From the IMG/VR virus record IMGVR_UViG_2541047823_000003: 32,947 bases of DNA; one strand, given 5' to 3'. The stretch comes from a virus. Its lineage: Duplodnaviria > Heunggongvirae > Uroviricota > Caudoviricetes. Below, piece after piece: positions 9,207 through 24,699 of the stretch. The notes under the pieces were generated by a model that was not told the DNA's origin, did no database searches, and worked only from the letters and a program-made list of their open reading frames with translations. The position numbers and the translations under genes are program-made. How positions within the stretch are numbered: the stretch's first letter is position 1; each line of letters opens with the position of its first letter.

Positions 9207-9389
9207 CTATGCTTCAATCAAATCCTCCAGTTTGCGGGCCTTTGAACGTGTGCAGTCAATCGGGTCATTGGTTTTACGGGTATTAAAAAGGGTTTCCACC
9301 CCCGGAATATCAAGGAGGGTAAACCACGTACCATTTGACATGCCCAGTGCCGCACATCGTCCTCCTTTATCCGTCAGTTCAACACTCAC
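9207..9389 (-). CDS. Hypothetical small tail-module protein
   Basis: 60-aa ORF starting 3 nt after the tail tube stop; same strand and operon context; no recognisable motif. Confidence 0.35.
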   Translation of the reverse strand: MSVELTDKGGRCAALGMSNGTWFTLLDIPGVETLFNTRKTNDPIDCTRSKARKLEDLIEA

Positions 9390-17898: not shown

Positions 17899-19493
17899 CA
17901 GAATCCCTCCAGCATACGGGCCGCCTGACGACGACGGCGTGAGCTTGCCTTCACCGGCCCTTTGTTAATTTCACGGCTGGCGAAATACGCCAGCGCCAGT
18001 GCGATGGCTGAATCCCCGTGGCGTTTACCACCGTCAGCCTTTGCTTTTGAGCGTTGCTCCGGTACGCGGGGGACACCGTTCACCACCTGAACGGCCCGCA
18101 GGTCATCCAGTGTGTCTTCATCCTTTGGTAAGTCCACCAGGTTACCGTCTTCCAGTGCAGCTTTGACCGGAGGCATATGCTCCCGGTACCAGCCTTCGGT
18201 TGGCATCACCTGCTGAACCCGGCTGGAGCCGTAGCGCTGCATGGCGTATTCAGCCAGATAGGCACCATTACCACGGGCATCAAACGCTGCACCCAGCAGA
18301 CCGGGCAGGCCATCCATCAGATACCAGGTGATTTGCTCCTGCTGTCTGAACGGCACGTTACGCAGCTCCAGTACGAATGGCACGCGTCGTACCAGGTTCT
18401 TCTCCTGCAGCAGGGGATAGTCCACCGACAAATCACCGCTACGGCCAAAGTCGCGCCCCAGGAAAGAGCGGGCATCAGTGGGGAGTGCCTCCAGCAAGGG
18501 TTTCAGATACTCATCAAGCCAGTCCTGCGTCTCGCGGAAGCGAACCTCATCAGACAGCAGTTCATAACCTTCCTTGCAGGTCAGACGCAATACCGGCGTA
18601 TCAGCGGACATGCGGGACTCTATCAGGGCACGGGACAGCCAGGCACCGCCACCGTTGGCCGGAATACAGTCAAGCTCTTCGGATGCGCCGGCACCGTAGA
18701 ATTTGTACACCGATGCCATCCAGGCCTGCTCGGATGCCTCCGACCATTCCTTCCCGGTGCGCAGACAGACGCGCCGGAACAGCCCCTCAGATACGGCTTC
18801 CCGGAAAGTGATGCGATGTATGCTGCCTCCCTGACGTCCGGCACGGATATCCCCGATAAGCGTATTGAACGGATTGTCGTCACCGTCATGGGTGGAGATA
18901 ACGCGTACCTTTCCCCCCCAGATAAGCATCGCCAGCGCCGCTTTCAGCAGTTCGTCCAGTTGCTCATGGAACGCCGCTTCGTCGATAACAATAATACCCT
19001 GACGGCCACGCAGGTTAGACGGGCGGCTGGAGAGCGCAACAATACGAAAGCCGGAGTCAGGAAATTTGATGGTGTAAGTCTTGATGTGTTTGTCGTCGTC
19101 GTCCTCTTCCCAGAATCCTTCTTCAATTTCACTGGCCGCATAGTTGAATGCCCGTGCCCACATCGCACACGCCTGAATGTATTCGACGGTCATGTCCTGG
19201 TTATAAGCGATGTAATACACATTCATCCCGCCTGCTGGCGCAGAAGAGGCGGCGGTCAGTACGTTATCGGATGCCTCAGCCCATGTAATACCGGTACGAC
19301 GGCTCTTTTCTATCACCTTAAGCGGAGAGGTGTCTGCCACCCAGCGCTGCTGGTAAGGCAACAGAACGGGAGGGGCATCCAGCGCCGAGGTATCAGGCAA
19401 AACGGGAGCAAGGTTATTCCTCCCGTCCATGGGACTCATCCCTTCGGGGCCGCCGCCAGCGGCGTTTAAAATCACTCCGGATGATTTTGTCAT
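17898..19493 (-). CDS. Terminase large subunit (Mu gp28-like)
   Basis: 531-aa ORF preceding the portal gene, following the small subunit-like gene; start may be one of the downstream Met codons. Confidence 0.8.
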   Translation of the reverse strand: MTKSSGVILNAAGGGPEGMSPMDGRNNLAPVLPDTSALDAPPVLLPYQQRWVADTSPLKVIEKSRRTGITWAEASDNVLTAASSAPAGGMNVYYIAYNQDMTVEYIQACAMWARAFNYAASEIEEGFWEEDDDDKHIKTYTIKFPDSGFRIVALSSRPSNLRGRQGIIVIDEAAFHEQLDELLKAALAMLIWGGKVRVISTHDGDDNPFNTLIGDIRAGRQGGSIHRITFREAVSEGLFRRVCLRTGKEWSEASEQAWMASVYKFYGAGASEELDCIPANGGGAWLSRALIESRMSADTPVLRLTCKEGYELLSDEVRFRETQDWLDEYLKPLLEALPTDARSFLGRDFGRSGDLSVDYPLLQEKNLVRRVPFVLELRNVPFRQQEQITWYLMDGLPGLLGAAFDARGNGAYLAEYAMQRYGSSRVQQVMPTEGWYREHMPPVKAALEDGNLVDLPKDEDTLDDLRAVQVVNGVPRVPEQRSKAKADGGKRHGDSAIALALAYFASREINKGPVKASSRRRRQAARMLEGF

Positions 19494-19585
19494 GTGGCAA
19501 TCCCCAGAATCTCGCGACGAAGCGCCTGTACTGCGTCGCTTGACAGTCCCCCCTTACGGGCAATTTTCTCGGCGTTGCTGGCTGC

Positions 19586-20035
19586 CTACTGCGCTCTGGC
19601 CCGTACTTCAGACTGGAACTTTTTGAGGTTGACGGACGCGCGGGACAGCGTAGCCACATTCTTCGCCACCTTCGACAGCAGGGCCACGCGTTCTTTAGGA
19701 TCGACTTCGCCTTCTTCCGCCTCCTGCAACTGGACAATACTCTCGAACAGCTCGGTCTGAATAAGGGCTATCACAGCCTCCGAACGCGCATCCTGATCGT
19801 CTGCTGCGCCTTCGGTCAGCATGCGGGCCGCTTCTGTTGCCGCACGGATAGCACCATAGCGGCGCTCAATCTTCTGTCCATAGCGATGGATAGCGGATTT
19901 GCTGATGACGTACCCCCGCTCACGCAGCAGGGACTCCAGCTCGTTATACCCGCTGAAGCCGGATTCAGTCAGCGCCCGTTCAAGCCAGCGGCGCACGTCT
20001 TCCGGCAGCTTTTCTATTGTGCTGCGTCTGGCCAT
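19586..20035 (-). CDS. Terminase small subunit-like DNA-binding protein (Mu gp27-like)
   Basis: 149-aa ORF immediately upstream of the large terminase; basic N-terminus and acidic C-terminus. Confidence 0.55.
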   Translation of the reverse strand: MARRSTIEKLPEDVRRWLERALTESGFSGYNELESLLRERGYVISKSAIHRYGQKIERRYGAIRAATEAARMLTEGAADDQDARSEAVIALIQTELFESIVQLQEAEEGEVDPKERVALLSKVAKNVATLSRASVNLKKFQSEVRARAQ

Positions 20036-22526: not shown

Positions 22527-23003
22527 ATGACGCACACACTGAATCCGGTCATCACTGTCACTGTGTCCGGTCCTGTGGGCAGCGGTAAAAGTTACGTACT
22601 GGCGCGGATAGAAGAGATGGTGAAACAGGAACTCGGAAACAGCGTCATTGTCGATGCTGCTGACGTGGAGAATGAGCGCCGTATGAATGGCGAAGATCTG
22701 ACGACCTGGCAGAAGCCACGGGGTGGCACAGTGATCAGGCTAGAGGAATACACGGGACAGGGCCTGTTGTCATACGGCGAGGAGCGTATCTGTCGGACGA
22801 ATGAGCTGCTGGATGTTATATGCCCCACGGGCCGGCAACCCTGGATACTGCCCGATGCACTGCATGCCACCATTGCGGCACTGATGACAGTTTACGATCA
22901 GGAGCTGCTCATGAAGGAGTTACGTAAACTCACCGGTCAGCCAACAGAATGTTGTTCGTCTCCGAAGTACGGCAAACAGGAAAACGCCCCGGATAATCCT
23001 TAA
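22527..23003 (+). CDS. Small P-loop NTPase/kinase-like protein, function unknown
   Basis: 158-aa ORF with GAGGAG RBS 7 nt upstream; Walker A at the N-terminus (VTVSGPVGSGKSYV) and a Walker B-like hhhhD (SVIVDAAD); plus strand, divergent from the late operon and convergent with the immunity-region operon. Confidence 0.6.
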   Translation: MTHTLNPVITVTVSGPVGSGKSYVLARIEEMVKQELGNSVIVDAADVENERRMNGEDLTTWQKPRGGTVIRLEEYTGQGLLSYGEERICRTNELLDVICPTGRQPWILPDALHATIAALMTVYDQELLMKELRKLTGQPTECCSSPKYGKQENAPDNP

Positions 23004-23015
23004 GATACCTCCTGA

Positions 23016-23038
23016 ACAGAAACAGCCCTGAAGGGCTG
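23016..23038 (-). terminator. Intrinsic terminator-like hairpin between the convergent genes
   Basis: CAGCCC-tgaa-GGGCTG at 23023-23038; on the minus strand it is followed by TTTCTGTT; sits directly after the stop of the glycine-zipper gene (23041) and 20 nt after the P-loop gene stop. Confidence 0.5.
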
Positions 23039-23040
23039 CA

Positions 23041-23424
23041 CTAAAAAAAGAAGTGTATTATTGCCCAAACAGCTATAACGATGATTCCCAGCCCAAGAGC
23101 CGATTCTAACTTATCTTTGGCAGTCATTTTTACTGTTGTAGCGGGCGCAGGTAAGTCTTGCTGCTGTGGATTTTCTGTTAGTTGTTTACGAGAAGAAACA
23201 TCGCCCCTATTAGTTTGCTTCATGTTGATTACAGATGCGTTATGGGCATTATCAGCAGCAATTGACTGAAGTTTTACAAAAGTTTTTGAATCTGTTTTAG
23301 CCAGAAGTAACCTATTTCCCGTAAACATTGCCTTAAAAGTGATAGTTTTTTTCGTCTTGTCCGCCGCACCAAGCAAACCTCCAATGACCAACCCTGCACC
23401 ACCAAAGATTAATCCACCAAGCAA
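23041..23424 (-). CDS. Glycine-zipper two-helix membrane protein (ORF as called from a TTG; reading frame continues upstream to ATG 23628 across an in-frame TGA)
   Basis: 127 aa; N-terminal glycine zipper (LGGLIFGGAGLVIGGLLGAA) and C-terminal hydrophobic helix (LGLGIIVIAVWAIIHFFF); the called start is TTG inside the zipper helix; upstream in the same frame lie a TGA (23506-23508) and a 40-codon ORF with AGGTGA RBS and ATG at 23626-23628; AT-rich. Confidence 0.5.
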   Translation of the reverse strand: MLGGLIFGGAGLVIGGLLGAADKTKKTITFKAMFTGNRLLLAKTDSKTFVKLQSIAADNAHNASVINMKQTNRGDVSSRKQLTENPQQQDLPAPATTVKMTAKDKLESALGLGIIVIAVWAIIHFFF

Positions 23425-23712
23425 ACCTGCGCCTGCCGCCTTACCTATACGGCTTTCCTCTTCACTATCCGCAAGTTCAATCGATAAAAGCTCTTCTTTC
23501 AGATTTCATACAATATTTTCAGGAAAGCCTTGTTTTGGTTTTTTGGCAAACACGATGGTACCGAACCCCATGCTTGCCCACCCTTTAGGAAAACTTCCTG
23601 CGATAACCTGAATCCCTGCCATGTTCATCACCTTTTACATTAAAATTTCAGAACGCAGCATGATGCCGCCTTTGTCTTTTTTCTGATCCCATGGTAATTC
23701 AGCTGTTATTTT

Positions 23713-24699
23713 CTATTTAAGAATAAAACGGTATTTACTGTCAGGAGTGCTTTGCTGATCAAGTAGCAGTGAACGACATGGAGCAGTCAAAACCCGAGCA
23801 TAACTACCATCAGGGCTTATGTTAATGTAACAAACCTTGCCCTTAACACTATAATTTTCGGGGACGGATGCCTTTGCTGATACAGTAAATTTAAGGGTAT
23901 GCCAGCCCGTTTTTTGCTTGTAGCTTGAAACCGAATGGAAATCATCTGAGTACTTATTTAACCCTGGAAACATGCTGCGCAGTGCGGGGATGGAATCTTC
24001 TATTATTTTATCGTTGGTTTTAATGTTAAAAACGCTGGTTTCAGTAGAAGCTACTGCTTTGGCATTTCCCCATTTACCAGCGAACACAATCATTCCCACG
24101 AAAAATATTGCTACAAGAACTAACACTCCCCCCAACACTACTACATGAGGCTTCCGGCTTCTGGTTGGTACAGTTGCGACTGATTTTGCACCGCTTTCCG
24201 ATGGAGGTGATAGAGTTTTACTCTCATCACGAATATTCAGCAGATCATCAAAATAACCAAACACAGCCTGCAACTGCTCTTTGTCTAGGCCTTTAAGATG
24301 GGTTGTACCGAAATGCTTCAGACAGTATCTGTCACGGTCAAGACGATACCCAGGGTCAGTAAGCGCCATTATTTTGCTGACCAGAAGATTACAGTCCTTC
24401 ATATTCTGGATCTGTTGTGCATATCTCTGAAGGATCTCAACCGCACCATGATAATCAGCCGCAGTCATTTCATTAACTGTTTTGGTATTAAGTTTCGTGT
24501 GGATCGTCATCCATAGCTCGCGCTTACTTTCCCCCAGATCAACCAATTCATCCATCAATCTGTGTAAATCGCGTTTTTGCAGCAACGAAATTGGTTGCTG
24601 GGCCGAAGGAAGTATGTCAGCAGAATAGTTATGAATGGTAACATCACCGCTGACAACGTTACCCACATCCCCGTTAACTGTTTGCTTCTCTTTACTCAT
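23713..24699 (-). CDS. Repressor-coupled single-pass membrane protein, function unknown
   Basis: 328-aa ORF whose ATG overlaps the repressor stop (ATGA, 24696-24699); cytoplasmic N-domain of about 185 aa, one TM helix (HVVVLGGVLVLVAIFFVGMIVFAGKW), C-terminal domain of about 120 aa with two Cys; AT-rich (sampled 60-nt lines give 33-48 percent GC). Confidence 0.6.
   Translation of the reverse strand: MSKEKQTVNGDVGNVVSGDVTIHNYSADILPSAQQPISLLQKRDLHRLMDELVDLGESKRELWMTIHTKLNTKTVNEMTAADYHGAVEILQRYAQQIQNMKDCNLLVSKIMALTDPGYRLDRDRYCLKHFGTTHLKGLDKEQLQAVFGYFDDLLNIRDESKTLSPPSESGAKSVATVPTRSRKPHVVVLGGVLVLVAIFFVGMIVFAGKWGNAKAVASTETSVFNIKTNDKIIEDSIPALRSMFPGLNKYSDDFHSVSSYKQKTGWHTLKFTVSAKASVPENYSVKGKVCYINISPDGSYARVLTAPCRSLLLDQQSTPDSKYRFILK

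Follow-up and report, generated by a model that had tools for sequence, protein, structure and literature searches.

A lineage-specific nonsense allele of a PH_gly_zipper family gene in a Mu-like prophage of Escherichia coli

Introduction

The closest described relative of the gene reported here is WP_000907412.1 (phrog_12025, PF27000), which is annotated as one intact 193-aa coding sequence, under the name 'hypothetical protein', in Escherichia coli CE10, IAI39 and SF-173. Bacterial PH-like membrane proteins of the bPH type, which often are fused to SHOCT domains, provide a second point of reference; according to a published prediction, SHOCT-like domains anchor proteins at the inner leaflet of the membrane (PMC11237479). 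Also relevant are the glycine-zipper pore formers and toxins and the nonsense pseudogenes of cryptic or defective prophages. A literature search on PH_gly_zipper proteins, and on bacterial or prophage PH domains combined with a glycine zipper, found no paper.

The window, that is, the whole 32,947-nt stretch of DNA that was analysed (IMG/VR record IMGVR_UViG_2541047823_000003), is an E. coli prophage of the transposable, Mu-like kind. The minus strand of positions 1-22400 carries genes for tail, head and lysis. The leftward genes are the repressor, a 328-aa gene and then the disrupted glycine-zipper gene that is the subject of this study; the rightward genes are a Ner-like gene, the transposase (rve), an ExeA/B-like gene and Gam.

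Results

The reading frame of the zipper gene was examined on the minus strand, where the following features were located.

23620..23634, minus strand: translation start, with the SD-like AAGGTG at 23634-23629, a 6-nt spacer and ATG 23622-23620; ATG 23628-23626, two codons upstream in frame, abuts the SD
23506..23508, minus strand: premature TGA at codon 39, with the SNP at 23507; the ancestral codon is TTA (Leu)
23041..23622, minus strand: disrupted gene for a 193-aa predicted membrane protein of the PH_gly_zipper family, orthologous to WP_000907412.1 and identical to it except at codon 39
23509..23622, minus strand: 38-codon N-terminal fragment, reaching through strands 1-3 of the PH-like domain into the beginning of strand 4; contains the family-invariant Gly9
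23041..23424, minus strand: 127-codon ORF with a TTG start, a gene-caller remnant of the broken gene
23359..23439, minus strand: helical hairpin of the glycine zipper (residues about 62-88), an insertion between strands 5 and 6; holds the 14-nt direct repeat
23044..23115, minus strand: hydrophobic helix at the C-terminus (residues 170-193), predicted to act as a membrane tail anchor; W186 and the HFFF tail are conserved in close homologues
23022..23039, minus strand: terminator-like hairpin just 3' of the TAG stop, common to the convergent gene 22527-23003

The TGA at 23508-23506 closes the frame opened by ATG 23628-23626 after 40 codons, as the initial annotation had described. Its assignment of the AGGTGA motif (23633-23628) as the ribosome-binding site of that ATG had to be revised, since the motif ends on the A of the ATG and leaves no spacer; it lies 6 nt 5' of the next in-frame ATG, 23622-23620, which it serves. 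This second ATG is the PGAP/RefSeq start and aligns with Met1 across the protein family, and the gene therefore has 193 codons and its upstream fragment 38 codons (minus-strand sequence around the start and stop: ...AAAAGGTGATGAACATGGCAGGG...). As had also been noted previously, and as was confirmed in the sequence, the 27 in-frame codons that follow the TGA (23505-23425) include neither an ATG nor a GTG and lead into the zipper; the first canonical alternative start is TTG 23424-23422, within the Gly-rich segment, which gives the 127-aa ORF 23041-23424. An ATG that overlaps the TGA (gtATGA) was discarded as a start, being out of frame and opening a short ORF that ends about 10 codons on at an out-of-frame TGA. 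Reinitiation was considered at CTG41, ATT48, ATA59 and TTG67; a well-spaced SD was present at ATA59 only, and ATA is not a usable start. The chance of such a pattern was estimated at ~0.09, from a shared frame (1/3) and 27 stop-free codons (~0.27); the sequence pattern alone is not unusual, and it is the comparative data that give it meaning.

Comparison with IAI39 and CE10 revealed one difference across the whole gene (23041-23622). Window position 23507 is C on the plus strand and A in CE10, IAI39 and SF-173, and codon 39 reads TGA in the window and TTA (Leu) at these three orthologous loci, which were the ones inspected; a sense codon at the stop in orthologues was the check that the initial annotation had proposed. 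Its first proposal, that one gene of about 195 codons was interrupted at the TGA, was borne out by the TTA of the orthologues, by their single 193-aa coding sequence and by the inclusion of the N-terminal segment in one domain. A 71-nt probe centred on the TGA site matched 96 complete RefSeq E. coli genomes, all at 98.6% identity (one mismatch), and none of these 96 gene-bearing genomes gave a 100% match.

More distant comparisons led to the same view of the gene. The repaired protein was matched by phrog_12025 of the PHROG collection over residues 1-193, against profile positions 1-193 of 193 (E = 2.3e-128), and in homologues from Citrobacter, Enterobacter, Serratia and other sources (66-72% identity) a single protein of 189-190 aa comprises the 38 N-terminal residues, Leu39 and the zipper. 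Position 39 is Leu in all close homologues and lies in a beta-strand of the structural model. A profile search of 1.84 billion cluster representatives found 223 relatives at E ≤ 1e-3, most of which align residue 1 to residue 1 over ~120 residues. In a 45-sequence alignment, Gly9 of the N-terminal 'AG[DS]F' motif was one of only three invariant residues and Met1 was nearly invariant; among the zipper glycines, G74 and G81 were invariant and G66, G69, G77 and G85 were at least 90% conserved. Relative to the Citrobacter-type gene, dN/dS was 0.033 for codons 1-38, 0.067 for codons 39-66 (from the TGA to the TTG) and 0.036 for codons 67-130, and it rose to 0.37 in the linker and tail. None of the orthologues has a separate small gene upstream, and calls of the TTG-start product were confined to interrupted copies of the gene, with the TGA in locus L003 and the presumed IS1 described below in locus L004. 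The segments on either side of the TGA are one selected coding unit, that is, one gene and not two. A blastn search against the phage collection gave only a 42-nt match.

The TGA is a heritable allele of an E. coli sublineage and is present in many independent assemblies. The exact 38-aa product was found on 51 public contigs (NCBI, ENA and Logan), for which NCBI names the strains HVH 187 and HVH 53, and the 127-aa product on 57; the two have been deposited as separate hypothetical proteins. GCA_000456805.1 (locus L009) and the window agree at every position over 19.4 kb, TGA included, and the Logan assembly ERR14647304 has the TGA and differs from the window at two other sites. Because the TGA recurs in independent assemblies, read error is excluded for practical purposes. 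The intact protein is encoded on at least 1000 contigs, with a diverged form on hundreds more. The earlier rationale, in which such a stop is what toxic genes typically show in clones and assemblies, is at odds with this heritability and with the stable presence of the intact allele.

An AlphaFold2 model was built on the 45-sequence alignment (a 5-sequence alignment gave a pLDDT of 35) and had pLDDT > 90 for residues 1-50 and 90-130. Strands were formed by residues 2-9, 14-19, 22-25, 37-40 and 45-50 and then by 93-100 and 104-111, followed by a capping helix (112-139) and a C-terminal hydrophobic helix (170-193). The model has a PH-like fold, with a seven-stranded sandwich and a C-terminal helix, and a hydrophobic glycine-zipper hairpin (helices 57-73 and 75-86, modelled at low confidence) is inserted inside this domain between strands 5 and 6. 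The TGA position falls in strand 4. It is likely, from the topology that the model suggests, that the inserted hairpin and the tail anchor together fasten a cytoplasmic PH-like module to the inner membrane.

Precomputed annotations placed PF27000 (PH_gly_zipper) on the homologues P0002, P0003, P0008 and P0009 (66-97% identity; weakly for P0008) and on the frameshifted fragment P0012. A direct Pfam scan, with a model set that lacks PF27000, produced only a sub-threshold C19orf12 match (E = 0.024) and no match to a bPH model. Searches for toxin, pore and defence families returned 0 PADLOC families and 0 NCBIfam families for the protein, and in Pfam again only the sub-threshold C19orf12; the pore-forming effector that had been suggested at first thus found no toxin or pore family match. 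Foldseek gave no significant match among the BFVD viral structures. SHOCT was present in 6 and SHOCT_2 in 2 of the 45 relatives that were scanned, and these motifs were C-terminal in the sequences read.

Other lesions were observed in the same gene. In GCA_002456665.1 (NKEC01000032.1, locus L004, positions 1-131; at about window 23470) the sequence 5' of about codon 50 is replaced (...AAGTTGGAGTCATTACC), and we take the replacing sequence to be an IS1 terminal inverted repeat; this lesion is an independent disruption of the gene. P0012 is a frameshifted allele, and the prophage locus of CUVET21-PYO5 keeps only the first ~79 nt. In-frame deletions within the zipper remove 11 aa in P0006 and 16 aa in P0007. 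A 14-nt direct repeat (AGGTTTGCTTGGTG) occurs inside the zipper at 23428-23415 and 23380-23367 on the minus strand, with the copies 48 nt apart, and the 16-aa deletion lies between the two copies.

To place the stop in the context of the whole prophage, the window was compared with E. coli O7:K1 CE10 between window positions 400 and 32700. Only eight differences were present, of which five are nonsynonymous, two are synonymous and one, at 23507, is the nonsense change; this spectrum is compatible with relaxed selection. The other seven are as follows.

11621: G142D in Gp37
12113: S127G in gp436
14310: synonymous, protease-like gene
15716: P236T in the head morphogenesis gene
19361: synonymous, terminase-like gene
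29673: K13N in a small early gene
30152: S74F in Gam

Outside this range, window 1-360 (the tail-fibre region) and 32827-32947 diverge from CE10; at the right end there is an IS3-family element in CE10, and in the TGA-lineage scaffold (L009) a stretch of N precedes an rve fragment.

Three further in-frame stops were found in the window.

2513-2515, minus strand: in-frame TAG in the gp25/GPW gene, 2333-2680
9207-9209, minus strand: in-frame TAG in a small hypothetical (tail-region) gene, 9108-9389
19586-19588, minus strand: in-frame TAG in the DUF3486/Mu Gp27-like gene, 19490-20035

These TAG codons are common to the window, CE10 and IAI39, and in the latter two PGAP flags them 'internal stop'; all three genes are intact in SF-173, and among 509 complete E. 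coli genomes only 2 have the DUF3486 TAG. A truncated, 149-aa Gp27 is also encoded at the TGA-bearing loci. Since CE10 and IAI39 have the Gp27 TAG but TTA at codon 39, the amber stops preceded the TGA, and the prophage copy was already defective when the TGA arose. All three of these other stops are amber, and no suppressor tRNA was found in the window; suppression as an explanation for the in-frame stops was set aside, as the window contains no tRNA gene.

In diverged relatives the zipper gene lies directly downstream of a CI-like repressor gene, and in the window the repressor gene and that of a 328-aa Flk-N-like membrane protein precede it. On gene order, this position beside the repressor points to probable lysogeny-side expression.

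The neighbouring genes also were examined. The 328-aa membrane protein (23713-24699, minus strand) has a Flk-like N-terminal region (NCBIfam PRK10715, E = 2.9e-12, residues 19-147, well below the cut-off; Pfam Flk_N weak); the stop of its gene overlaps nothing, the start overlaps the repressor stop, and the gene is absent from the Citrobacter-type relatives. The convergent 158-aa gene (22527-23003, plus strand) is named 'ABC transporter ATPase' in RefSeq. Its product comprises a P-loop N-terminus only, with sub-threshold AAA, KAP and BrxC/D matches, and corresponds to positions 1-157 of the 242-position phrog_3787; the RefSeq name looks like over-annotation. In related prophages (L005, L011) the slot of this gene holds a D12 methyltransferase or other cargo.

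Discussion

The disrupted frame is very probably an ordinary nonsense pseudogene, in which TTA became TGA in a 193-codon membrane-protein gene as part of the decay of a defective Mu-like prophage in one E. coli lineage. The gene occupies what is probably the lysogeny-side cargo slot of the transposable prophage, downstream of the repressor. Its intact product is predicted to be a PH-like beta-sandwich facing the cytoplasm, in which strands 1-5 (residues 2-50) and strands 6-7 with the capping helix (93-139) are split by the zipper hairpin, followed by a variable linker and a putative C-terminal membrane anchor. A single T to G transversion on the coding strand, at window 23507, converted the Leu39 codon TTA into TGA. 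The stop, in strand 4, would leave a 38-residue peptide that is unlikely to fold and a remainder that appears to lack a credible start, with neither piece expected to build the domain, so that the allele would be null or at best a severe hypomorph; this loss of function is what the fold model predicts. The copy in this lineage had by then acquired the three amber stops in its baseplate, packaging and tail-region genes, and the arrival of the TGA on an already defective copy would make the event part of the ordinary, presumably neutral, decay of such a prophage.

The alternative that survives best concerns the cause and not the molecular event, which would be the same. A costly or mildly toxic membrane protein expressed in the lysogen, for example one with a membrane-perturbing zipper hairpin, may have been inactivated under positive selection. 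The independent lesions in the gene, namely the presumed IS1 in GCA_002456665.1, the frameshift in P0012, the zipper deletions in P0006 and P0007 and the remnant in CUVET21-PYO5, are what such selection would be expected to leave, and these several disrupted alleles may have been favoured by selection against the gene instead of arising through neutral decay. However, lesions are few by comparison with the at least 1000 contigs that bear the intact allele and the hundreds more with its diverged form, the gene is under strong purifying selection, it is intact at every orthologous locus inspected (IAI39, CE10 and SF-173), and no complete genome is identical to the TGA site. Furthermore, the zipper deletions are explained by the 14-nt direct repeat, and the TGA arose in a prophage that already had three other nonsense mutations. 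Adaptive loss is therefore considered unlikely.

A broader proposal is that the PH_gly_zipper proteins encoded beside Mu-like repressors are lysogen-expressed membrane effectors, acting for example in superinfection exclusion or abortive infection, with a zipper hairpin able to compromise the membrane. The TGA, IS1, frameshift and zipper-deletion alleles would then represent the recurrent silencing of a costly effector once the prophage had become defective. This proposal is put forward because of the position of the gene, the purifying selection on it and the number of disrupted alleles, and we regard it as speculative and rather improbable.

Read-through, whether leaky or programmed, would leave the gene attenuated instead of dead, with UGA-A decoded at low frequency by a near-cognate Trp tRNA or as selenocysteine. 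UGA is the leakiest stop codon of E. coli and a following A is a comparatively weak termination context; the stop here is TGA followed by A, and on this context some read-through at the UGA is possible. However, the ancestral codon is an ordinary Leu TTA at every locus inspected and 0 of the 96 complete genomes match the TGA, and therefore no recoding signal can have evolved. Programmed recoding would entail conservation of the UGA, but no homologue was found to have it at this site; no SECIS or other Rfam match was found within 23000-23750 at E ≤ 1, and position 39 falls in a beta-strand where all close homologues have Leu. The read-through that the initial annotation had allowed for, and with it an attenuated gene, is a very unlikely reading.

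The view that the locus holds two real genes, a small upstream peptide and a zipper protein initiated at a non-canonical codon, draws on the fact that both ORFs can be called separately in the window and have been deposited as such. It is highly improbable, since no homologue has such a split, the one residue outside the zipper that does not vary is in the N-terminal segment, and this segment supplies strands to the domain that holds the zipper, codons 39-66 have a dN/dS of 0.067, and there is no in-frame start past the stop with a usable SD; the non-canonical start that was offered earlier for the zipper protein likewise found no support, the TTG ORF being confined to disrupted alleles and the orthologues being without a separate upstream gene. 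A sequencing or assembly error in the source genome of the window, which would accord with the 0 of 96 complete RefSeq genomes that match the TGA, can be given hardly any credence in view of the exact 38-aa product on 51 contigs and in two named strains, HVH 187 and HVH 53, and of the independent run ERR14647304, which has the TGA and two other SNPs.

The 'hypothetical proteins' of 38 aa and 127 aa deposited for this lineage both derive from one broken gene, for which the proper annotation is a pseudogene of the WP_000907412.1 family. Apart from cleaner annotation, little follows from the stop allele. What deserves interest is the intact PH_gly_zipper family and not the stop codon; the family is conserved, widespread and uncharacterised, adjoins the repressor in Mu-like prophages, and is a reasonable candidate for lysogenic-conversion or exclusion assays.

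In comparison with known systems, the locus is closest to that of WP_000907412.1. The two have the same sequence bar codon 39 and the same place, with the repressor module on the upstream side and the holin and SLT lysis genes on the downstream side, and they differ in that the window copy has TGA at Leu39 and encodes only 38 residues from the native start. The bPH-type proteins have in common with the intact product a PH-like beta-sandwich, a C-terminal capping helix and membrane association; here, a glycine zipper between strands 5 and 6 takes the place of an N-terminal TM pair as the hydrophobic hairpin. With the glycine-zipper pore formers and toxins the product shares a hydrophobic segment with a GxxxG-type repeat, but the zipper of this family is inserted into a conserved globular domain and is not a free-standing pore peptide, and no glycine-zipper toxin or outer-membrane family was matched. 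From the nonsense pseudogenes of cryptic or defective prophages there is no difference of substance, a lineage-private stop and private amber stops being features of both, and the locus belongs to this category, as a lineage-specific nonsense allele of a catalogued prophage gene.
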